Virus record (IMG/VR): IMGVR_UViG_2740892234_000024 | Length of the DNA: 8,307 bases | Strand: one strand, 5' to 3' | Source of the DNA: a virus | Lineage: Duplodnaviria; Heunggongvirae; Uroviricota; Caudoviricetes | Shown: positions 1-8,307 of the stretch, piece by piece | Layout of the letters: the number at the start of each line of letters is the position of its first letter | Numbering within the stretch: position 1 is the first letter of the stretch | Notes under the pieces: generated by a model | The model's database searches: none | What the model was told of the DNA's origin: nothing | The model's input: only the letters and a program-made list of their open reading frames with translations | Position numbers and translations under genes: made by a program

Positions 1-579
1 TTAGCCGTTAAGTTTAACTGCCAGACCTGCGACATATTCCCCTTGATAACGAGCAATAGACAGTTCTTCCTGGCTTGGCTGGCGTGAGCCGTCACCGCCT
101 GCGATGGTGGTTGCGCCGTACGGCGTACCGCCGCGAACCTGTGAAACGTCAAATAATTCCTGCGCTGCGTAGCCAATGGGGACAATTACCATGCCGTGAT
201 GCGCAAGGGTCGTCCAGGTTGAAGTAATAGTTTGTTCCTGACCGCCGCCAGTACCGGTGGAACTAAAGACGCTCGCCAGTTTTCCGTATAGTGCGCCGGA
301 AGCCCACAGGCCGCCCGTCTGGTCGAGGAAGGTACGCATTTGACCGGACATGTTGCCAAAGCGGGTAGGTGTACCAAAAATAATGGCGTCGTAATCGGCC
401 AGTTCTTGCGGGGTTGCAACCGGTGCAGTTTGCGTTTTACCGCCTGCTTTTTCAAATAATTGCGGCGGCATGGTTTCCGGTACACGCTTAACGACAACTT
501 CTGCGCCATCGACTTTGCTTGCACCCTCAGCGACTGCGCGTGCCATCGTTTCAACATGTCTAAGGATATGGTTTATCAT
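1..579 (-). CDS. wrbA: NAD(P)H:quinone oxidoreductase WrbA, 3-prime portion with a phage-derived start; the native N-terminus is replaced by about 9 different codons (MINHILRHV, then [10 protein letters not shown]... onward matches WrbA as recalled)
   Basis: 192-aa ORF; from [38 protein letters not shown] to the C-terminal AVKLNG it matches E. coli WrbA as I recall it. TAA stop at 1-3. ATG at 579-577 overlaps the int stop (ATGA). Confidence 0.85.
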
Positions 580-580
580 T
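540..580. other. Approximate prophage/chromosome junction (int-proximal att core) inside wrbA
   Basis: WrbA-like translation begins around the codons for ETMA (about nt 540-556); upstream codons diverge from native WrbA and run straight into the int stop. Exact core not determinable without the uninterrupted wrbA allele. Confidence 0.4.
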
Positions 581-1886
581 TTGAAAAATATAATTTTATT
601 TCATCCTCCTGGTCACTTTGGGGCACGTCTGGGGCACGGGCATTAAGGACATTATTCAACATGGCAACTTGAGTCACGCTGCACTCAGGCATCCATGCAC
701 CATAAACATTGTAGACCATGCTGGCGCTGGAGTGCCCCATCTGTGATGCAATAAATGTCGGGTTTGCTCCGGAAGATAAAGCCCAGCACGCATAGGTATG
801 GCGTGACTGATACGCTTTACGGGATCGGATACCCGCTCTTTTTATTGCTGAATCCCATGTCGCTCCGATGGAGCTTACCGCGTAGTTAATACCCGCCTTG
901 TGATTCTTGCGAACGATTTGCGGACAGAAAACAAAAGTGCACTCGTGCAAAATTGTTCTTCCGTACTCGCGTAATTGAACAGTGATCTGATGCTGCCTGC
1001 TAAGACGAGTAAGCATCGCCTGGTTTTTAAGTGCTTCAATTGCTGGTGCCAGAAGATGTATAACCCGGTTAGTGCCTGCGTCGGTCTTTGGTAGCGTAAA
1101 ATCACCTATTTTTGTAAAATTTCGTCGCACTGTTATCGTGCCAGCTTTCAGGTCGATATCCTCCCATGCAAGTGCGGCAATTTCACCGTGTCGCATCCCT
1201 GTAAAAACAGCCACTGTCCAGAGGTTTTTGGTCTGTTGATGATGGCAGGCATCAATGAGACGGCTAAACTCATCTCTGGTCAGTGGATCCGGCACTGGTT
1301 TTGATTTCCTCAGCGGTGTTATTGAATTAAACGGGTTTTTCTCCAGATACCCGTTTTCGGCGGCAAAGCTGAACATTCCGGCTGTTGTTGTCATGTAATA
1401 GTTCACTGTGGGTACGGTTCTTCCTTTTCGGGACGTGCTGGTTTTCCTGCTTCCCTTTTCCCCGGTCAGTAAATCTTTCCTGATAAACAGCAGATCTTCT
1501 TTTGTAATCGATGACGCCAGCCTGCCAGGACCAAGCCTCGGTAGCATATTTTTCATCACTGATTGATAACGATTTAAGGCGTTACTACCGATTTCCATTG
1601 CTTTCAGAGTAAGCCATTTCTGTGCCAGTTCACCGACGGTGATATCTTTTTTTACCAGGCCAAATAGCTTCAGGTTAGGTGAGTCAGGGAATCGATCGGC
1701 ATAATCAAACGTTCCTGTTCTGATTGCAAAGCAGACCGAAGCCCTTAACTCACCAGCGATCTTTCTGTTTTTCGGTGTATCGGGCACGCGAAGATTTTCG
1801 CGCACTCGTTTACCCCTGTACTTAAACGTTATTCGGAGTTTTCCTCCGTGATTTTCAACGCCGGCTGGATAGGCTGAATTCGCCAT
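576..1886 (-). CDS. int: Phage tyrosine integrase (site-specific recombinase)
   Basis: Long ORF next to the att junction with tyrosine-recombinase-type C-terminal region (...[15 protein letters not shown]..., ...[27 protein letters not shown]...). The track start at 1910 is a GTG; the ATG at 1886-1884 (MANSAYPAG...) is preceded by AGGAGG and is preferred. Confidence 0.85.
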
Positions 1887-1938
1887 TGTTCCTCCTGCGT
1901 CCAAGAGCACGCTCAGGTTATACTCTTATGGACAAGAA

Positions 1939-2238
1939 TTAAACATCCTGAGATGGTAAGGGTTGGTTTTTGATCCAAGTGTTGATGGTAGGAAGATGAT
2001 AGAGACATTCGCTGTTTTTCTTTGGCGTTCCGTCGGGGGCGATTTGTTTATATTCTCTGCCGTTCATCCACGCACTGTCCCTGGCGCGTAATATTGTTCC
2101 TTTTCTCAGGCCTGTTACAGCCATTAAAAGCTCCAGTGTTACCCATTCATTCGCATTTATCTGTACAACAGGTGTGATGACTGGCTGAATGCCATGGTTA
2201 TGTTGGTTTACTAACTCGCGCATAAGTTGCCTCTGCAT
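1939..2238 (-). CDS. xis: Excisionase-like DNA-binding protein
   Basis: Small ORF immediately upstream of int; the segment EWVTLELLMAVTGLRKGTILRAR resembles the DNA-binding region of excisionase-family proteins. An internal ATG at 2223 has a better RBS (GAGG) than the ATG at 2238. Confidence 0.6.
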   Translation of the reverse strand: MQRQLMRELVNQHNHGIQPVITPVVQINANEWVTLELLMAVTGLRKGTILRARDSAWMNGREYKQIAPDGTPKKNSECLYHLPTINTWIKNQPLPSQDV

Positions 2239-2244
2239 GTGTAA

Positions 2245-2265
2245 GAAAAAACCGCCATCAGGCGG
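2245..2265 (-). terminator. Intrinsic-terminator-like hairpin for the leftward transcript
   Basis: Perfect 5-bp GC stem (ccgcc 2252-2256 / ggcgg 2261-2265, loop atca); on the minus strand it is followed by TTTTTT (plus 2246-2251). Sits 44 nt downstream of the stop at 2309. Confidence 0.35.
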
Positions 2266-2308
2266 CTTGGTGTTCTTTCAGTTCTTCAATTCGAATATTG
2301 GTTACGTC

Positions 2309-2620
2309 TTATTCGATGCGCACTCCTGGTATTTCGCCTTTTGATATTGCTAAGTCATAAATTTGCGCGGCACTATACCCATCTCGCATCCATGAATCTA
2401 AGGCGCGAACAGCCTCGCTACGCTTTTTATCTTCTCTCTCATTTTTGATATCAACGAGGACATCAACGCAATTAAGGCAAATGTGGATTTTGTCTTTACA
2501 TTCGATCATGGCGGCTTTGCCATGATTTCCGCCACACAGTGAGCATAAATCTTCAGGGTCTGGCTGGTATTTCTGTAACGTTAGAGGGTTGAATGTTGAA
2601 CAGGCCATAATCATCTCCAT
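2309..2620 (-). CDS. Hypothetical Cys-rich protein (putative zinc ribbon, CxxC...CxxC)
   Basis: ORF with CSLCGG ... CLNCV cysteine pairs. Three in-frame ATGs at 2620, 2614 and 2608; the 2608 start (MACSTF...) has the best-spaced GGAG. Confidence 0.55.
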   Translation of the reverse strand: MEMIMACSTFNPLTLQKYQPDPEDLCSLCGGNHGKAAMIECKDKIHICLNCVDVLVDIKNEREDKKRSEAVRALDSWMRDGYSAAQIYDLAISKGEIPGVRIE

Positions 2621-2627
2621 AAAACAA

Positions 2628-2645
2628 AACTCGCCGTAGCGAGTT
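2628..2645 (-). terminator. Terminator-like hairpin between the 94-aa and 103-aa genes
   Basis: 7-bp stem (aactcgc / gcgagtt, loop cgta) followed on the minus strand by TTGTTTT. Confidence 0.3.
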
Positions 2646-2679
2646 CAGATAAAAGAAATCCCCGCGAGTGCGAGGATTG

Positions 2680-2964
2680 TTATTCATTGCCGATATTCAC
2701 CTTTATCGCGAACACCTTTACCGGTTTATCTCCGAAGTGTGTATGTGTGATTGTCTTGATTTTATATCCGTCATACGGGACGTTAATTCTGCGGCTGGAG
2801 TCGTCGCGCTTCGGATATCCCTTTGTGATAATCAGGCGGTCATACTCCCGGAACATAATTCGCTTATTCCAGTAGTCATTACACAGGCGATACTCTTCTG
2901 TTTTCTCTCCGCGAATCATGGCATCGAAGTATTCACCTTTGACTGCAAGTTGCAGGTTAGCCAC
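2680..2964 (-). CDS. Small ASCH/DUF3850-like protein (PUA-like fold, recalled from family pattern)
   Basis: 94-aa ORF; GTG start at 2964 preceded by AGGAGG with 6-nt spacer. N-terminal pattern VKGEYFDAMIRGEKTEEYRL resembles ASCH-type domains. Confidence 0.55.
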   Translation of the reverse strand: MANLQLAVKGEYFDAMIRGEKTEEYRLCNDYWNKRIMFREYDRLIITKGYPKRDDSSRRINVPYDGYKIKTITHTHFGDKPVKVFAIKVNIGNE

Positions 2965-3241
2965 GACCTTCCTCCTTTGGCTTGTGAATTTGTATCGTCA
3001 TGCCGCTTTGAGTGGTGACTACAACGACAGAACCAGGCTGAAGGCTGTTAAGATTGAATGCTTCGTAAAATGAATCCAAGGCCAGTGCTTTTTTATTCTT
3101 TCGGTTCCACCAACGCCATCCCTTGCTACAGGCTACACTGACAATCCACTGTCCACTCCTATAAGCCAAATAAAACCAGATGAGCAAAACCTGAAGGAAT
3201 GCTATCCAGTCAATAATCGTATATTTCGCGAAGGAGTCCAT
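2957..3241 (-). CDS. Small membrane protein (one predicted transmembrane helix)
   Basis: ORF with hydrophobic stretch IIDWIAFLQVLLIWFYLAY; ATG at 3241-3239 overlaps the upstream stop (TGATG), AGGAGG upstream. The track start at 3244 is a TTG. Confidence 0.5.
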   Translation of the reverse strand: MDSFAKYTIIDWIAFLQVLLIWFYLAYRSGQWIVSVACSKGWRWWNRKNKKALALDSFYEAFNLNSLQPGSVVVVTTQSGMTIQIHKPKEEGRG

Positions 3242-3852
3242 CAATTAACCTCCTGCGGCGGTTCTGGTAGCGGCATCCAGTGGGTTACTCCATGCCATAT
3301 ACCAGTTAAGGTTTCAAACCTTGGCTCTCTGCCTTTCTGTGTCTTGGCATATTCATTCCTTGTATATACGCATTGTCTAACTGCATATTCATTCCATCCA
3401 ATAACTGTTTGTCTAATTTCTGGCATTCGCTCACTACAGCTTATCCAACCATCCGGAATTACCGGAGAGTTGCCAGCCTCATACGCCACACGCATCCAGT
3501 GCATAAGCGTTTCAGTGCTCACACATCCGCAATCAACGTCTATTTTTTCTTTTTGTTCTGACAACCATTCCTGGAATGACAGCTTGGCAGTCTGGCTTGC
3601 TGGCTCAATTCGTGGCAGGCCGATATATAGCGGTACATTTCCCGGATCCATCGAATTGTCGGGACAAATAAACGTGTTACAACCATATTTAACGAGCTCA
3701 ATTCCCGCGGTGTCGATAGTGGCGAATGGTTCAGCGGTCAATGCAGTCAACGCAATTTCATAAGCACGGCGCTCAATATTGTCCCGCACCCCCAGACTGC
3801 TGATATGTTCTTTAATTTCTTTAATTAGCTCTTTGTCGGTAATAGTGGTCAT
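3241..3852 (-). CDS. DUF551/Eaa-like phage protein
   Basis: 203-aa ORF ending in ...GIWHGVTHWMPLPEPPQEVN, the tail I associate with DUF551-type proteins of lambdoid early-left regions. Confidence 0.65.
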   Translation of the reverse strand: MTTITDKELIKEIKEHISSLGVRDNIERRAYEIALTALTAEPFATIDTAGIELVKYGCNTFICPDNSMDPGNVPLYIGLPRIEPASQTAKLSFQEWLSEQKEKIDVDCGCVSTETLMHWMRVAYEAGNSPVIPDGWISCSERMPEIRQTVIGWNEYAVRQCVYTRNEYAKTQKGREPRFETLTGIWHGVTHWMPLPEPPQEVN

Positions 3853-3854
3853 AG

Positions 3855-4046
3855 CTATTTCACCTTAATCTCAACATTTCGCAGCTTTAGCTCTACTGGC
3901 ATGTCTGACTTTCCTGTTAATGCTAATGCGAGATTTTCTGGAGTAATGAGAGCAGTTATTGTTTTCCCCATCGCCAGACGAATAATCATTCGTATCTCGC
4001 GATCGTCACATGCTCCCGGTCGAACAATTGAGATTTGTCCGTTCAT
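3855..4046 (-). CDS. Hypothetical 63-aa protein
   Basis: ORF whose ATG follows the conserved junction sequence GGAGAGTGAGATG that supplies its RBS; no family recognised. Confidence 0.5.
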   Translation of the reverse strand: MNGQISIVRPGACDDREIRMIIRLAMGKTITALITPENLALALTGKSDMPVELKLRNVEIKVK

Positions 4047-4047
4047 C

Positions 4048-4071
4048 TCACTCTCCTTTGATGCGAATGCC
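4048..4071. repeat. 24-bp gene-junction repeat tcactctcctttgatgcgaatgcc, copy 1 (identical copy at 5965-5988; degenerate relative near 4543-4568)
   Basis: Exact 24-bp identity read directly. On the minus strand it encodes the tail GIRIKGE plus TGA and contains the GGAGAG RBS for the next gene. Confidence 0.9.
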
Positions 4072-4539
4072 AGCGGTACTCATTCTCCTGATTTCCCAGA
4101 GCACACGAGGAATACCACCGTTTCCGACCGGATCGCGTTTACTCCGCAGGGCGACGCTTGATTCCGCCCAGCTTTTTCTTGGAGGAAGCTCTTTCACACG
4201 AACAAAACCAGCTGCGCGAAGAGATGCTCCTGATTCATCTGCCTGGGTGTACGTAATACAACGTTGATAACCCATAGCTTTTGCTGCCCGCCAGACAGCA
4301 CCATAAAGCGCGCTGTTAGCGTTGCGTTCTCCTGTGGTACATGTGCGATTTACTTCAAGCGTTAATCCATCGTCCAAATGTCGTGCAACAGGTCGACCAG
4401 CTGTCGCCACACCTATCAATTCTCCGGCATTATTTCTCAGACCAATGCTGAATTTATGCCCCACTGGTGGTTTATTGTGTCGGTGGTGCTGTGCGATAAA
4501 TTCCTGCGCCGCTTTCAGCGTTATAGGTGAAATGACCAT
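4048..4539 (-). CDS. Conserved phage protein of unknown function (possibly GNAT-like fold) carrying an Ea22-type C-terminal tail (...GIRIKGE)
   Basis: About 163 aa; ATG at 4539 overlaps the upstream stop (the GTG at 4542 is the alternative). C-terminus matches the tail of the Ea22-like gene at 5965-6467. The fold guess is from loose motif resemblance only. Confidence 0.6.
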   Translation of the reverse strand: MVISPITLKAAQEFIAQHHRHNKPPVGHKFSIGLRNNAGELIGVATAGRPVARHLDDGLTLEVNRTCTTGERNANSALYGAVWRAAKAMGYQRCITYTQADESGASLRAAGFVRVKELPPRKSWAESSVALRSKRDPVGNGGIPRVLWEIRRMSTAGIRIKGE

Positions 4540-5132
4540 CACTCAGACTCCTCCTTGATGCCAGCGGCGCTTGCTGATTCTTCATATGCGCGTTTAGCAG
4601 CGTTAAGGATTGCTGCCAGTGGCGTATAGCCGCCATCCATTCGGATTGTGTTGTGGATGCCAGCCATTGTGTCGCGCAATTTGCTGTGGCTAGCAGACAG
4701 TTCTGCTATGCGCTTACTTCCATCCGCGATTACTCCCTCGTAATACTCGCGTTGCTCGTTGAGTTTTGATTTTGCTTCCTCAAGCTCAACACGCAGTTTC
4801 CCTACCGTTAGCGCAATATCCTCGTTCTCCTGGTCGCGGCGTTTGATGTATTGCTGGTTTCTTTCCAGCTCATCCAGCAGCGCCAAGACGGTAGCCGGAT
4901 TGGCTGCGGCGATGAATTCAGCATTGGCCTGCTGTTCCATTTGGAAATCTTCATCGAAACCGCTTTCAGGATGCGCTCCTTCAATTCTGCAAATGGGAAT
5001 ATATCCAGCAGCCTCGCGATGAATTAGTGCATCATCACCATCAAATCGGCTCTCTCCATATTCGAGAGACCACTCACCACACGTTGCTTTTTCTGCCTTT
5101 TCACGCAGTACCTGATAGTCAATCTTGCTCAC
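4539..5132 (-). CDS. Ea22-like family protein, paralog 1
   Basis: Coiled-coil core LLDELERNQQYIKRRDQENEDIALTVGKLRVELEEAKSKLNEQREYYEGVIADGSKRIAEL matches lambda Ea22 as recalled. Preferred start is GTG at 5132 (VSKIDYQVLRE...) with AGGAGG 6 nt upstream and GTGA overlap with the upstream stop; the ATG at 5165 is probably an over-extension. Confidence 0.7.
   Translation of the reverse strand: MSKIDYQVLREKAEKATCGEWSLEYGESRFDGDDALIHREAAGYIPICRIEGAHPESGFDEDFQMEQQANAEFIAAANPATVLALLDELERNQQYIKRRDQENEDIALTVGKLRVELEEAKSKLNEQREYYEGVIADGSKRIAELSASHSKLRDTMAGIHNTIRMDGGYTPLAAILNAAKRAYEESASAAGIKEESE
4778..4878. repeat. About 100-bp repeat, copy A (in Ea22-like paralog 1); copy B is at 6161-6262
   Basis: Direct comparison shows about 7 mismatches in 100 bp; encodes the shared coiled-coil segment. 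Copy B runs into the N-gap at 6263. Confidence 0.9.
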
Positions 5133-5963
5133 TGGTTTCCTCCTTTGCGAATCTGTTCCGCCCATTCTTCAAGGGATTTCTCCGCATATTCACCAGACAG
5201 GCCATCAATCGGATGCGCTTCATTAGCCAACTCTTCTTTCGCTGACAAAATCATGCGTGTAACGTCGAAAACTTCACGCAAAGACTTATTGATAAATCCG
5301 TGATTGAAAGCAGCAGCAAGACGGCTTGCGGTATAGTTAATACCCTCGTTGCGAGCCGCCGCACGAATTTCAGCCAGGAAAGCGTCGGTGGCTGGGGTTT
5401 CCGTGAAGTTGTCCTCCCAACCGTAGTACTCCTGACGACAGAAGTTATTAAATTCCTTCTCCGACTGTTTAAGCTCCGCATTCTCTGCCGCCAGCACCGA
5501 AAACTTCTCGTGTGCCAACTTAACAGCCGCATCAGCCTGCTTAATTNNNNNNNNNNCCGGGTTCTTTAATGTGCAAGCGAGGCTCACCATCTTTTGGCTC
5601 AGGCCACTGGCGCTCCATGTTGATCTTCAATTTATCTTCCATAGCAGCGGTAATTTCAGCATCGCTGATGCCAGCACGGCGCTGTGCATCCCACAACAGA
5701 AACTGCATATCAGCCCACTCGCTAAGATCGTCTGGTTCGGCTGCGGCTTCCAGTGCCTCTTTTGAGAGATGTTTCAGCGGACCAATGGGGCCAACGCAGC
5801 CAAATGTGGAGTCAGACCATTTGGCATGCTCGTGGCGAATCTGTTCGCGTTCCAGTGATGCCAGTGCAATTCGTGCCAGTTCCATTTGTTCGCCACGAGT
5901 AAGTCCGTTATCAAGCGGATTTTTAATGAATAATTTGATACGTTCTTTGGTTATAGCGCTCAT
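5129..5963 (-). CDS. MazG-like NTP pyrophosphohydrolase domain protein (DUF550-type dATP/dGTP pyrophosphohydrolase-like), interrupted by the N-gap at 5547-5556
   Basis: N-terminal part (5557-5963) has the all-alpha MazG-type acidic pattern (EALEAAAE ... EWADMQFLLWDAQRRAGISDAEITAAMEDKLKINMERQW). The C-terminal part (5129-5546) continues after the gap in a shifted frame. Start ATG at 5963 follows GGAGAGTGATATG. Confidence 0.55.
5547..5556. other. Assembly gap (10 N) inside the MazG-like gene
   Basis: Run of N; reading frames on the two sides differ, so the true gap length is unknown. Confidence 0.95.
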
Positions 5964-5964
5964 A

Positions 5965-5988
5965 TCACTCTCCTTTGATGCGAATGCC
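5965..5988. repeat. 24-bp gene-junction repeat, copy 2
   Basis: Identical to 4048-4071. Confidence 0.9.
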
Positions 5989-6467
5989 TGTTGCAATGCT
6001 GTTTATGATGCTGTCAGTGCATGGGGTAGAAAGCTGGGCATCTCCAGCAATTCTCATGACCTCAACATCTGCATATCGAATACCGAGGTGTATCAGACCG
6101 GCTATACCTGACTTAAGCCGAGCATTTTCCATAAACAGATCCTTTGCACGCTGTTTTTCTGCCTCAAGCTCAACGCGCAACTTCCCTACCGTTAACGCAA
6201 TATCCTCGTTCTCTTGGTCGCGGCGTTTGATGTATTGCTGGTTTCTTTCCCGTTCATCCAGCNNNNNNNNNNTTGGTCTTCGGCCAGCTCCGCTAAATTA
6301 GCCTCCAGTTCGGCTATGCGTTCGTTTAATGCATCTCGTTCATCCAGTAGCGCCAGCACAACCTGAGGTGTGACTTTCATACGAAATGCCAGCAATTTTT
6401 GAGGCGTTGCTACTGTTTCAATTGCTACTGCCGCCTCACGCAGTGCCTGAGAGTTAATTTCGCTCAC
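5965..6467 (-). CDS. Ea22-like family protein, paralog 2, interrupted by the N-gap at 6263-6272
   Basis: N-terminus MSEINSQALREAA..., coiled-coil segment and C-terminal ...GIRIKGE all match lambda Ea22 as recalled. ATG at 6467 overlaps the TraR-like stop (ATGA). Confidence 0.7.
6161..6262. repeat. About 100-bp repeat, copy B (in Ea22-like paralog 2)
   Basis: See copy A at 4778-4878. Confidence 0.9.
6263..6272. other. Assembly gap (10 N) inside Ea22-like paralog 2
   Basis: Run of N placed at the edge of a roughly 100-bp repeat shared with paralog 1. Confidence 0.95.
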
Positions 6468-6685
6468 TTCGAACCTCTCTGTTTACTGATAAGCTCCAGA
6501 TCCTCCTGGCAACTTGCACAAGTCCGACAACCCTGAACGGCCAGGCGTCTTCGTTCATCTATCGGATCGCCACACTCACAACAATGAGTGGCAGATATAG
6601 CCTGGTGGTTCAGGCGGCGCATTTTTATTGCTGTGTTGCGCTGTAATTCTTCAATTTCTGATGCTGAATCAATGATGTCTGCCAT
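6464..6685 (-). CDS. TraR/DksA-family C4 zinc-finger protein
   Basis: 73-aa ORF with CCECGDPIDERRRLAVQGCRTCASCQ (CxxC-x17-CxxC), the DksA/TraR-type zinc finger. Confidence 0.75.
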   Translation of the reverse strand: MADIIDSASEIEELQRNTAIKMRRLNHQAISATHCCECGDPIDERRRLAVQGCRTCASCQEDLELISKQRGSK

Positions 6686-6728
6686 CTTTCATTAATCCCT
6701 GAATTGTTGGTTAATACGCTTGAGGGTG

Positions 6729-6738
6729 NNNNNNNNNN
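6729..6738. other. Assembly gap (10 N) between the two copies of the TraR-like 5-prime region
   Basis: Run of N flanked by near-identical 188-bp sequences. Confidence 0.95.
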
Positions 6739-6884
6739 ACCAGGCGTCTTCGTTCATCTATGGGATCGCCACACTCACAACAATGAGTGGCGGATATAGT
6801 CTGGTAGTTCAGACGACGCATTTTTATTGCTGTATTGCGCTGTAATTCTTCAATTTCTGATGCTGAATCAATGATGTCCGCCAT
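6739..6884 (-). pseudogene. Partial second copy of the TraR-like gene (N-terminal 48 codons, cut off by the gap)
   Basis: ATG at 6884-6882 opens a frame encoding MADIIDSASEIEELQRNTAIKMRRLN... that runs into the N-run. Confidence 0.5.
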
Positions 6885-6934
6885 CTTTCATTAATCCCTG
6901 AATTGTTGGTTAATACGCTTGAGGGTGAATGCGA

Positions 6935-6960
6935 ATAATAAAAAAGGAGCCTGTAGCTCC
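6935..6960 (-). terminator. Intrinsic terminator for the leftward transcript
   Basis: 5-bp stem (ggagc 6946-6950 / gctcc 6956-6960, loop ctgta) followed on the minus strand by TTTTTTATTAT; lies 23 nt downstream of the stop at 6983. Confidence 0.45.
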
Positions 6961-6982
6961 CTGATGATTTTGCTTTTCATGT

Positions 6983-7198
6983 TCACCGTTCCTTAAAGAC
7001 GCCGTTTAACATGCCGATCGCCAGGCTTAAATGAGTCGGTGTGAATCCCATCAGCGTTACCGTTTCGCGGTGCTTCTTCAGTACGCTACGGCAAATGTCA
7101 TCGACGTTTTTATCCGGAAACTGCTGTCTGGCTTTTTTGATTTCAGAATTAGCCTGACGGGCAATGCTGCGAAGGGCGTTATTATGTTCTATTGTCAT
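6983..7198 (-). CDS. Hypothetical 71-aa protein translationally coupled to the upstream 250-aa gene
   Basis: ATG at 7198 (MTIEHNNALRSIARQ...) preceded by GAGG, 8 nt downstream of the 250-aa gene stop at 7206. The track extension to 7336 overlaps that gene and is not preferred. Confidence 0.6.
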   Translation of the reverse strand: MTIEHNNALRSIARQANSEIKKARQQFPDKNVDDICRSVLKKHRETVTLMGFTPTHLSLAIGMLNGVFKER

Positions 7199-7205
7199 AT
7201 TGGCC

Positions 7206-7958
7206 TCACACTTCGAATGCCAGTTGAGGGGTAAAGACGTCCCGTTCAGCATTGTAATTAAGTGAACTGGCACTGTTGAATGATTCAATGCGTTCCACAA
7301 GAACTTGCGTACGGGTTTCTTTACTTGCGGGAGCATATGGCGAACCTACCCAGGATTTGTCGATGCCTATATTTCTTGCGACGTTCGTGCTGTCTGCAGA
7401 CGAAAGCGGTACATGAGTAAAAATGTCTTTATTTAACATCCGTAACCCATGAATCTTGGTGATTGGGTAGCCGTACTGATCTACAACATGACGTATAAGA
7501 TCGCGTAGTTTAGCCCGACACGCTCTCGGTCGTTTTGCATCGCATTCCCCCATCGAGCCGATGCAGACGCGGGGAAACTCATGGCACAGACGAATAAATC
7601 GCTCATCTGGTTCGTTCATGTGCCACACCGGAGCACCAATAAATTTACCGTGAGGCCATGCCGCAATCAGGGCGTCATTCTCTTCACTGGTTCCGCCGAT
7701 AACATCCGGGATAACCGCGAATGAGAAACGAGGGTGATTACCCCAGCGTTCAACAAATCTGTAATATTTATTCCAGTCTACGGCCTTGTTTTTTGTCCAG
7801 AATGTGAATGCACCATTATCAAGAGCAAATGATTGGGTGACTTCGGAAGCCAGATCAATCTGAGCTGGATTAGCAAAACTGATGAATGCGTGTCTGCCTT
7901 TCCAGGCTTTCAACGCACAGGTATCGGGAGTTATTGGACCACCGTGAAAATGAATCAT
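7206..7958 (-). CDS. 250-aa protein with tRNA-guanine-transglycosylase-like motifs; candidate DpdA-like DNA 7-deazaguanine transglycosylase (hypothesis)
   Basis: Clean ORF with ATG overlapping the upstream stop (ATGA). FALDNGAF resembles the TGT LTDSGGF motif, and SADSTNVARNIG resembles TGT FDCVMPTRNARNG with identical D-x5-R-N spacing. Motifs matched by eye against recalled E. coli Tgt. Confidence 0.7.
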   Translation of the reverse strand: MIHFHGGPITPDTCALKAWKGRHAFISFANPAQIDLASEVTQSFALDNGAFTFWTKNKAVDWNKYYRFVERWGNHPRFSFAVIPDVIGGTSEENDALIAAWPHGKFIGAPVWHMNEPDERFIRLCHEFPRVCIGSMGECDAKRPRACRAKLRDLIRHVVDQYGYPITKIHGLRMLNKDIFTHVPLSSADSTNVARNIGIDKSWVGSPYAPASKETRTQVLVERIESFNSASSLNYNAERDVFTPQLAFEV

Positions 7959-8119
7959 ACACTCTCCCGTTTATTATTTATCTCCTCAGCCAGCCGCTGT
8001 GCTTTCAGGGGATTTCGGGTAACAGAAAGGCCGGGAAATACCCAGCCTCGCTTTGTAACGGAGTAGACGAAAGTGATCGCGCCTACCCGGATATTATCGT
8101 GAGGATGCTTCATCGCCAT
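7955..8119 (-). CDS. Small protein in the lambda orf60a position (immediately downstream of exo)
   Basis: 54-aa ORF ([54 protein letters not shown]); the second Met at 8113 gives ATGA overlap with the exo stop; its own stop overlaps the next ATG (ATGA). Confidence 0.55.
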
Positions 8120-8307
8120 TGCTCCCCAAATACAAAACCAATTTCAGCCAGTGCCTCGTCCATTTTTTCGATGAACTCCGGCACCATCTCGTCAAAACTC
8201 GCCATGTAATTTTCATCCCGCTCAACCACGACATAATGCAGGCCTTCACGCTTCATTCGTGGGTCATAGTTGGCAAAGTACCAGGCATCTTTTCGCGTCA
8301 CCCACAT
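8110..8307 (-). CDS. exo: Lambda-type exonuclease (Red-alpha), 3-prime end only; gene continues beyond the window
   Basis: Translation [65 protein letters not shown] matches the C-terminal 65 residues of lambda Exo as recalled, with a few substitutions. Confidence 0.85.

Follow-up and report, generated by a model that had tools for sequence, protein, structure and literature searches.

A MazG-like reading frame in a viral record is probably two unrelated prophage gene fragments placed side by side by a scaffold join

The closest described relative of the hydrolase gene analyzed here is eaa of Salmonella phage P22 (AF217253.1, 5509-6462), whose product EaA belongs to the same family, together with many prophage homologues annotated as [quoted passage not shown] The (d)GTP-specific MazG-like pyrophosphohydrolase MazZ of cyanophage S-2L (PDB 7ODY) is a more distant relative. 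It acts in a datZ-mazZ-purZ cluster that feeds 2-aminoadenine synthesis; the roles of its residues are taken here from PMC8342488. According to a passage in PMC12884076 that refers to Zhou et al. 2021, the protein with measured dATP/dGTP activity was a DUF5664-DUF550 fusion from Acinetobacter phage SH-Ab 15497, and the DUF550 domain of that protein is the source of the present Pfam name of the family. The same paper ascribes a similar dNTP-to-dNMP activity to the DUF5664 protein of phage Wayne alone. The activity that Pfam names for the family has also been measured on MazZ. A separate group, the Ead/Ea22-like proteins (Pfam ID PF13935), includes Ead and Eae of P22 and Ea22 of lambda, and these are relatives of the other gene discussed below.

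The window, i.e., the whole analyzed stretch of 8,307 nt from a Caudoviricetes record (IMG/VR IMGVR_UViG_2740892234_000024), carries on its minus strand a reading frame at 5129-5963 that the earlier note described as a single MazG-like pyrophosphohydrolase gene, split by an N-gap and lying between two Ea22-like paralogs. The gap and the flanking Ea22-like genes are indeed present (Table 1), the strings EALEAAAE, EWADMQF, and DAEITAAMEDKLKINMER are found in the translation from the ATG, and the assignment of the N-terminal part to the MazG/HisE type and to DUF550 stands, backed by PF04447, MazZ, and the conserved catalytic residues. The single gene does not stand. The two sides are parts of different genes both in complete genomes and in contigs without breaks, and what was taken for the C-terminal domain of the hydrolase is a third Ea22-like fragment; the composite reading frame is an artefact. 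The earlier note had counted closure of the gap onto two unrelated genes against itself, and two unrelated genes are what those genomes and contigs contain. We assign a probability of roughly 80% to the reading in which a scaffold join has set two unrelated minus-strand gene fragments side by side, the right-hand one encoding a hydrolase with a MazZ-like mechanism proposed by homology.

Table 1. Coordinates of the features in and around the composite reading frame
Feature	Position	Strand	Basis
Repeat in the DUF551 gene of piece A, GNSPVIPDGWISCSERMP linker	3416..3472	minus	blastn-short
Complete Ead/Ea22-like paralog, downstream; overlaps the end of the 209-aa gene	4539..5165	minus	PF13935, E=1.7e-39
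Last 138 codons and stop (3' 418 nt) of a 209-aa Ead/Ea22-like (P22 Eae-like) gene	5129..5546	minus	identity
N-run 1, scaffold join of pieces A and B, not a short in-gene gap	5547..5556	.	10 N
Complete DUF550 / dATP-dGTP pyrophosphohydrolase domain, residues 42-135	5557..5840	minus	PF04447 and identity
N-terminal leader module, codons 1-41 of the eaa-type gene, MSAITKERIKLFIKNPLDNGLTRGEQMELARIALASLEREQ	5841..5963	minus	ORF and start context
Start codon ATG of the ORF	5963-5961	minus	read from sequence
Another Ea22-like gene, 3' part (piece B); directly precedes the eaa-type gene	5965..6262	minus	identity
Shine-Dalgarno AAGGAG of the eaa-type gene	5970..5975	minus	read from sequence
N-run 2, scaffold join of pieces B and C	6263..6272	.	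10 N
First 64 codons (piece C) of an Ea22-like gene of the type whose 3' end is at 5129-5546	6273..6467	minus	PF13935, E=4.2e-10
Core of piece C (188 nt), shared without differences by both prophage types	6352..6539	.	comparison with L005
N-run 3, scaffold join of pieces C and D	6729..6738	.	10 N
Proposed metal residues, DUF550 domain	E69, E72, E82, D85		MazZ alignment
Proposed base-contacting residues, DUF550 domain	W49, D92		MazZ alignment
Other proposed catalytic residues	K111, N115, R118, W120, R129, H131		MazZ alignment

Judged by sequence, the right-hand side, read from 5963 to 5557, is the first 135 codons of a P22 EaA-type gene and is truncated whichever reading of the assembly holds. 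The TGA of the upstream gene (5967-5965) lies 1 nt before the ATG, so that the two genes are read back to back. The leader module is common to other proteins of the “ea” region: its PHROG matches (phrog_3323, phrog_10451, and phrog_660) are confined to residues 1-49, and its DNA (5850-5963) underlies genes annotated as DUF551 or hypothetical in other genomes (H116-H129). The reading frame ends with the contig after ...HIKEPG, at codon 135 (N-run edge 5556), and thus does not run from start to stop, whereas its relatives extend 61-101 residues further. The 135-residue fragment is 100% identical to proteins of 196-236 aa, most of them with PF04447 and PF04448; ORF25 of phage N7 matches it at 100%, as do E. 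coli proteins such as P0042. Its DNA (5557-5963) is 100% identical to positions 5001-5407 of the related locus L005, where 4739-5407 encodes a 222-aa DUF550-DUF551 protein that is 100% identical to the fragment over the 135 residues. In the full-length copies of 196-236 aa, DUF550 is followed by a GNxPVxPDGW linker and a DUF551 domain; this 3' part is absent from the window. P22 EaA has the module order of these copies (leader, DUF550, linker, DUF551) and is encoded at the corresponding place, the early-left “ea” region with the recombination genes on one side and xis/int on the other; the identity is 62%. At 317 aa it is longer, the domain being flanked on both sides by extra inserts, whereas the window copy ends at residue 135. 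The MazG-like hydrolase is therefore an ordinary member of a known prophage family of the P22 EaA type.

The left-hand side (5129-5546) is, by identity, a fragment of an Ead/Ea22-like gene unrelated to the hydrolase gene. Residues 72-209 of WP_016241159.1 match it at 100%, as does P0121, which is found on at least 1000 contigs. A Pfam scan of this stretch alone shows no Pfam match and no MazG/DUF550 signal; the stretch falls outside the Pfam-defined N-terminal region of Ead/Ea22-like proteins, and it matches a PHROG family of unknown function (phrog_614, E=7e-62). The parent protein WP_016241159.1 scores 42.1 bits against PF13935 (cut-off, 27) and thus belongs to the Ead/Ea22-like family. The gene part just upstream of the eaa-type gene, 5965-6262, matches annotated Ead/Ea22-like genes of L001 and L005 at 98.9-100% identity. 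An NCBIfam scan of both halves and their neighbours gave no match.

A fusion of the MazG-like N-terminal domain, through the gap, to a novel C-terminal domain at 5129-5546 is highly improbable. The two parts do share strand and orientation, and module shuffling is rampant in this region, as in the Ea22::DUF550::DUF551 chimera of L015. However, with a spacer of 10 nt the parts are out of frame (2 + 10 + 1 leftover bases), two different complete genes match the two sides at 100%, and the junction, sought as contiguous 5250-5850, occurs in 0 of 5,426 complete E. coli genomes. Neither half's domain is found on homologues of the other half, among the best 120 homologues of each and the long cluster representatives read for the N-terminal half. 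The latter (120 closest homologues and representatives) continue into DUF551-type or other C-terminal modules, never into the Ea22-like half, and PF04447 is present in 0 of the 120 closest homologues of the C-terminal half. The only records similar to both halves within about 1 kb, H76/L006 and H78/L015, were rejected as parallels of the junction: there, the module resembling the C-terminal half is a separate gene upstream of DUF550, i.e., in the opposite order.

The window contains three N-runs, each exactly 10 long, which divide it into four contigs, A to D. These runs are not same-length masks: right up to the Ns their flanks are 100% identical to different genes, and each of the three falls at a repeat boundary. 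At the first of them, ...HIKEPG ends the right-hand fragment and ...IKQADAAVKLAHEKF belongs to the Ea22-like side. In the unbroken contig L011 and in seven other contexts, C-like sequence begins 17 nt beyond piece A (99.96%); the sequence of 6273-6467 lies 17 nt from the equivalent of window position 5546 in L003, L004, and L007-L014. Pieces B (100%) and D (99.87%) are found 191 nt apart in L005, another prophage type. The 188-nt core of piece C has zero mismatches to L005, with mismatches flanking both of its ends, a pattern that identifies it as a collapsed repeat at which the assembly branches. Piece B stops 3 nt short of this core and piece D begins just past it: the start of D (6739) is the equivalent of C position 6540, the first post-core base at which C differs from L005, so that the TraR/DksA gene is present twice, as two alleles. 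Over its first 189 nt, D aligns to C 6541-6728, and 8 positions are mismatched. As for the break at 5557, its likely reason is the linker repeat in the DUF551 gene of piece A itself, which in blastn-short comparisons is 94-98% identical to the sequence past the left end of piece B in L001, L002, L005, and L006.

Under the scaffold-join reading, pieces A and C would come from a wrbA-integrated prophage and pieces B and D, most likely, from a second prophage similar to that found beside dsdC in strain 2013C-3264; the core in C would be common to both types, and the scaffolder would have linearised the branch point as A-B-C-D. A real adjacency of A and B, still with two genes and with the eaa-type gene truly located between Ea22-like paralogs, appears unlikely. 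In P22 and other prophages eaa does lie just downstream of ead/Ea22-type genes, and gaps whose length is not known are conventionally written as 10 N. Gap 1 would then hold about 480 nt or more, comprising the 3' end that encodes DUF551, a stop codon, and one more copy of the Ea22-like 5' end, which the assembler would have collapsed into piece C; all of the missing sequences are repeats prone to collapse. Such an arrangement, however, needs two Ea22-like 5' ends and a tandem TraR pair. Further, in eight distinct public contexts the exact protein encoded at 4539-5165 is preceded by the intact 209-aa Ea22-like gene, without a DUF550 gene, and the matches of pieces B (100%) and D (99.9%) to a single other prophage type run exactly to the edges of its shared core. 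No match covering 80% or more of the window was found among complete E. coli genomes, and the pattern of A end, 0-30 nt, and B start had no match in GTDB species-representative genomes. The window is thus chiefly a warning: its 10-N runs mark places where the scaffold joins co-resident lambdoid prophages at the edges of repeats, neither reading frames across them nor the B-C-D order beside A should be trusted, and the apparent “new C-terminal domain” of a MazG-like enzyme vanishes once the joins are recognised.

The DUF550 domain itself is well defined. Residues 42-135 match positions 1-94 of the 97 in PF04447 (dATP/dGTP pyrophosphohydrolase, formerly DUF550) with 142.3 bits and E=5.7e-42, far beyond chance given the Pfam cut-off of 23 bits. 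The Pfam scan gives PF04447 alone, with no match to the MazG or PRA-PH (HisE) profiles at E≤10; kinship to canonical MazG/HisE, as in E. coli, is at the superfamily level, seen only through the predicted fold and the MazZ profile match. Searched against PDB, the family profile has one credible match, MazZ (7ODY, E=0.0012); single-sequence phmmer also finds 7ODY only, at E=0.56, which is not significant by itself. The AF2 model (pLDDT, 75.9) has the four helices of the all-alpha MazG/HisE fold, whereas a single-sequence AlphaFold model of the 135-aa fragment was unusable (pLDDT, 52.7) and was kept out of the fold search.

MazZ is only about 21% identical to the window's domain. Its metal ligands E35/E38/E50/D53 have conserved counterparts there, as do R83, W15, D60, K76, N80, W85, R94, and H95. 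The invariant columns of the family alignment A1 (W, E, E, E, D, K, N, R, W, R, and H) align with the ligand and metal residues of MazZ. In particular, E69, E72, E82, D85, and R118, all invariant in A1, pair with MazZ E35, (E38), E50, D53, and R83, which would supply the acidic metal motif (E-x-x-E ... E-x-x-D) and the transition-state arginine; HMMER sets the E72 equivalent two residues off E38, and this pairing relies on the identical E-x-x-E spacing. By homology, the domain would be a MazZ-like all-alpha NTP pyrophosphohydrolase, forming a dimer or tetramer, with Mg2+/Mn2+ bound through the four acidic residues. The purine would be held by W49 and D92, the latter being the counterpart of MazZ D60 and the putative reader of the guanine 2-amino group, and the phosphates by R118 and the partner-chain residues K111/N115/W120/R129/H131; (d)GTP, possibly also dATP, would be converted to monophosphate and pyrophosphate.

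MazZ differs from the eaa-type gene product in having neither the leader nor the DUF551 module, and the window lacks the partners of the Z cluster. No PurZ/DatZ-like gene is found among its larger ORFs, which encode WrbA, integrase, DUF551, Mom-like, Ea22-like, TraR, and tgt/DpdA-like proteins, and none is annotated in the related loci L001-L006, L016, and L017. The SH-Ab 15497 protein, compared here by description, shares DUF550 with the window but differs in its fusion to DUF5664 and in its origin from a phage with a Z genome. With no purZ in the phage, hydrolysis early in the lytic cycle would reshape the purine (d)NTP pools instead of supplying 2-aminoadenine synthesis. The EaA/DUF550 family combines an active site that resembles that of a characterised dGTP pyrophosphohydrolase with occurrence in phages that lack Z-DNA. 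DUF550 and a tgt/DpdA-like gene are found together in L005, not in L001, L002, L006, or P22.

The EaA/DUF550 family is present in 797 of the 5,426 complete E. coli genomes, and the domain is very widespread and strongly conserved across temperate enterobacterial and Klebsiella phages; 3,533 clusters at 50% identity and 495 phage records contain it. Such a wide distribution implies a general benefit and, with the phage devoid of purZ/datZ partners and the window of any suitable ORF, is consistent with another role, in which the domain would act here not on purine dNTPs but on another nucleotide (ppGpp, cyclic, or modified) or would counter host defence by clearing a nucleotide immune signal or the precursor of one. 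Within the MazG family, substrates vary. We nevertheless regard this as a minority possibility, since the guanine-reading D92 and the stacking tryptophan are conserved, which favours guanine (d)NTPs; PADLOC shows no match for either half at E≤0.01, and the literature search on EaA function or MazG-like counter-defence returned nothing relevant and no link to defence.

It is quite doubtful, if conceivable, that EaA-type DUF550-DUF551 proteins as a family may serve counter-defence or host takeover through (d)GTP/dATP pyrophosphohydrolase activity, for example by draining a purine nucleotide pool or signal needed by host immunity, with the swappable DUF551 tail perhaps directing the enzyme to its target. 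The only pointers to such a role are conservation and the early-operon position. If true, it would be a trait of the whole EaA/DUF550 family and not of the window: the carriers of DUF550-DUF551 proteins include hundreds of temperate enterobacterial phages as well as lytic Klebsiella phages, with ordinary A-containing DNA. In the PADLOC search, the neighbouring Ea22-like protein weakly matched DndD/PbeC, probably a chance similarity of coiled coils.

The interval 5129-5963 (minus strand), which spans the first of the N-runs in the window and had at first been read as one MazG-like gene split by a gap, is a genuine EaA/DUF550 gene (Pfam ID PF04447), truncated by a contig end and artificially joined to an Ea22-like tail. 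The observation is partly confirmed and its interpretation partly supported. The window itself forms the left arm of a lambdoid prophage that has integrated at wrbA, and in it the integrase gene is followed by small excisionase-side genes and then by a series of leftward-transcribed "ea"-type genes. Three N-runs, every one exactly 10 bases long, separate four sequence pieces, A to D.

Coordinates of features in the window
Feature	Positions	Strand	Remark
3' end of wrbA	1-579		
Tyrosine integrase	576-1910		
DUF551 protein gene	3241-3852	-	203 aa
Linker DNA of the DUF551 gene	3416-3472		GNSPVIPDGW
Mom-like candidate gene	4048-4542	-	164 aa
Ea22-like left half	5129-5546	-	
Hydrolase fragment	5963-5557	-	
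Start of the 209-aa Ea22-like gene	6467-6273	-	piece C
TraR/DksA gene, first copy	6464-6685	-	
TraR/DksA gene, second copy	6711-6884	-	interrupted by N-run 3
DpdA-like candidate gene	7206-7958	-	250 aa
DUF1317 gene (probable)	7955-8119	-	
Apparent 3' end of lambda-type exonuclease gene	8110-8307	-	...GEQWR
N-run 1	5547-5556		10 N
N-run 2	6263-6272		10 N
N-run 3	6729-6738		10 N
Piece A	1-5546		
Piece B	5557-6262		
Piece C	6273-6728		
Piece D	6739-8307		

The hydrolase frame, of 135 codons and two further bases, extends leftward from the ATG at 5963-5961 until it reaches the N-run. Before this ATG lie AAGGAG (5975-5970) and the TGA of the upstream gene, which ends one base short of it. The strings quoted in the earlier note occur in the translation. 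In a Pfam scan, the frame matches PF04447 (dATP/dGTP pyrophosphohydrolase, previously called DUF550) over profile positions 1-94 of 97, with E = 5.7e-42 and a score of 142.3 bits (cut-off 23), and no other family at E ≤ 10. A profile of 16 DUF550 domain sequences, searched against the whole PDB, retrieved a single credible chain, 7ODY (E = 0.0012 across almost the full domain), the remaining row having an E value of 1. This chain is MazZ, the MazG-like (d)GTP pyrophosphohydrolase of cyanophage S-2L. AlphaFold2 modeling on the same alignment gave a four-helix bundle with a mean pLDDT of 75.9. The functional residues of MazZ (Czernecki et al., PMC8342488) were paired with those of the window protein from HMMER alignments, as follows (MazZ/window): metal ligands E34/K68, E35/E69, E38/E72, E50/E82, and D53/D85; transition-state residue R83/R118; and nucleotide pocket W15/W49, D60/D92, K76/K111, N80/N115, W85/W120, R94/R129, and H95/H131. 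The E38/E72 pair follows the E-x-x-E spacing, HMMER placing a two-residue gap elsewhere, and E34 is the sole metal ligand that is not conserved among MazZ-1 proteins (PMC8342488). The paired window residues are invariant or nearly so in the 16-sequence alignment. Because the sequence, profile, fold, and active-site evidence agree, the assignment to the MazG/HisE/DUF550 group is supported, and this part of the earlier note stands.

The left half has no match in the Pfam scan. With 100% identity, it corresponds to the last 418 nt of the gene for a 209-aa ead/Ea22-like protein (WP_016241159.1), which is present on at least 1,000 contigs. PF04447 is found in none of its 120 closest homologues, which are 131 to 238 aa long and bear the names Ea22-like, Eae-like, or hypothetical. 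Piece C encodes the first 64 residues of the 209-aa protein (V/MSxIxxQALREAAVAIETVATPQKLL...LAELAEDQ). In two complete genomes (L003 and L004), the equivalents of positions 5546 and 6273 are separated by 17 nt encoding QKAIES, and the same spacing recurs in public contigs, in eight distinct contexts with the exact 208-aa Ea22 neighbour protein of the window; in all of these, the 209-aa gene is intact and the DUF550 gene is absent. One of these contigs, L011, matches piece A from end to end (99.96%). At 5129-5165 (minus strand), the next Ea22-like gene (4539-5165) begins before the stop of the 209-aa gene is passed, at a start that is ambiguous, either GTGA (4-nt overlap, RefSeq) or an ATG 37 nt upstream (other gene callers).

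A literal 10-nt gap would leave 2 + 10 + 1 bases between the frames of the two halves. The stretch 5250-5850 is contiguous in none of the 5,426 complete Escherichia coli genomes, the junction pattern was not found in GTDB species-representative genomes, and only two record types show similarity to both halves within ~1 kb, with the halves separate and in the opposite order. With each half 100% identical to a different gene, the idea of a single split gene is refuted, two unrelated genes being what the earlier note had named as evidence against it. Judged from sequence, the halves are separate genes under either reading of the assembly. One such reading, a real adjacency in which B lies between A and C and the first gap hides collapsed repeat sequence of at least ~480 nt, is conceivable but would require a duplication of the Ea22 5' end and TraR genes in tandem. 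The simplest reading is a collapsed repeat in C, of which A and B would both be left neighbours, with the branch point written linearly by the scaffolder as A-B-C-D.

Pieces B and D match another prophage type, which adjoins dsdC/torI in strain 2013C-3264 (L005), with 100% and 99.87% identity, respectively, and a separation of 191 nt. A 188-nt core of piece C (6352-6539) is identical to L005, and the two differ on both sides of it. Piece B ends three bases short of the core equivalent, and piece D starts at the equivalent of the first post-core base at which C and L005 differ. Beyond the left end of B, the next 51 to 57 nt in four relatives are 94 to 98% identical to the linker DNA of the DUF551 gene in piece A. 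Since the core and linker repeats adjoin them, both ends of B and the start of D lie at repeat boundaries, the exception being the right end of A, which stops 17 nt before C. Over its first 189 nt, D carries a second allele, with 8 mismatches, of the TraR/DksA zinc-finger gene already present in C. The two copies are best explained as alleles of two prophages put end to end by the scaffolder, and a tandem duplication was set aside.

The 120 closest proteins of the hydrolase fragment in a large protein database are 98 to 100% identical over all 135 residues and 196 to 236 aa long, and most contain both PF04447 and DUF551 (PF04448). The copy in the complete genome of strain 2013C-3264 (L005:4739-5407; 100% DNA identity) encodes 222 aa with both domains, reading through ...HIKEPGNYPVTPDGWISCSERMP...THWMPLPEPP, and ORF25 of phage N7 is 100% identical across the fragment. 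P22 eaa (317 aa, 62% identity) shares this architecture and the position of the gene, in the order eae-eaf-ead-eai-eaa-eag-eac-xis-int. By its sequence, the window carries the leader and the complete catalytic domain of an EaA-type gene, without the DUF551 tail. The gene is of an already known kind: EaA/DUF550 is a well-populated, already named family, found in 797 of the 5,426 E. coli genomes and in 495 phage records, many of them from Klebsiella phages, and forming 3,533 clusters at 50% identity.

The position of DUF550 within proteins varies, and these proteins freely swap the modules at their N and C termini. The DUF551 tail and a 41-residue leader are common to other "ea" proteins, including the 203-aa DUF551 protein of the window, which has the same module design as EaA (leader MTTITDKELIKEIKE...YEIALTALTAEP and linker GNSPVIPDGWISCSERMP). 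The linker DNA of this DUF551 gene, shared with DUF550 genes, is a hotspot of recombination and assembly breaks. A natural chimera in L015 (2272-2958; NZ_CM177019.1, WP_490186585.1) combines an Ea22 N-terminal domain with part of DUF550, joined mid-domain at ...LLDELEAAAEPDD..., and with a DUF551 domain after it, and shows recombination at short motifs common to Ea22 and DUF550 genes; with the W49/E69/E72 half of the active site missing, it is probably inactive. RefSeq/PGAP cuts the continuous EaA-type ORF in two in L005 (4739-5407, 222 aa) and L001 (2778-3407, 209 aa), into a "pseudogene" over the leader (42 residues) and a CDS of reduced length that begins within the ORF. There is no stop codon or frameshift between these parts in either locus, and the split seems to be an artefact of annotation, brought about by the shuffling of the leader module.

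The hydrolase gene lies in the early-left operon, tightly coupled to the upstream gene. By analogy with MazZ (PMC8342488) and with the DUF550 activity reported for a protein of SH-Ab 15497, as cited in PMC12884076, its product may act as a dimer or tetramer that hydrolyzes (d)GTP, perhaps dATP too, to the monophosphate and pyrophosphate in an Mg2+/Mn2+-dependent manner. According to the same paper, the SH-Ab 15497 enzyme is, however, a DUF5664-DUF550 fusion, and a DUF5664 protein of another phage, Wayne, is an active dNTP-to-dNMP hydrolase by itself. Neither purZ nor datZ is present in the window or the related loci, so that the product cannot supply 2-aminoadenine synthesis, and its likely effect is therefore on purine (d)NTP pools, which would shift early after induction or infection. 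Our literature search found no paper with an assay of an EaA-type protein. Neither half matched a PADLOC defence model at E ≤ 0.01, and a counter-defence role is no more than a possibility.

Two neighbouring genes may be involved in DNA modification. The Mom-like candidate in the ea region, named "XF1762 family protein" in RefSeq, matches phrog_1384 "Mom-like DNA modification protein" (E = 1.4e-43) and scores 24.2 bits with Pfam Mom, slightly below the 27.1 cut-off. The other, in piece D, which is of the prophage type that also contains the DUF550 fragment, matches phrog_887 "queuine tRNA-ribosyltransferase" (E = 4.5e-98), with no Pfam match at E ≤ 0.01; it is annotated as "hypothetical" in L005 and could be a case of a DpdA-like DNA transglycosylase gene (7-deazaguanine DNA modification) carried by a lambdoid prophage. 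At the right end of the window, the probable DUF1317 gene, placed by its position relative to L005, and the apparent exonuclease end indicate that D runs on into an exo-bet-gam recombination module, as in L005, whereas the module of the wrbA-prophage relatives of piece A is of the AAA-ATPase/anti-RecBCD kind.
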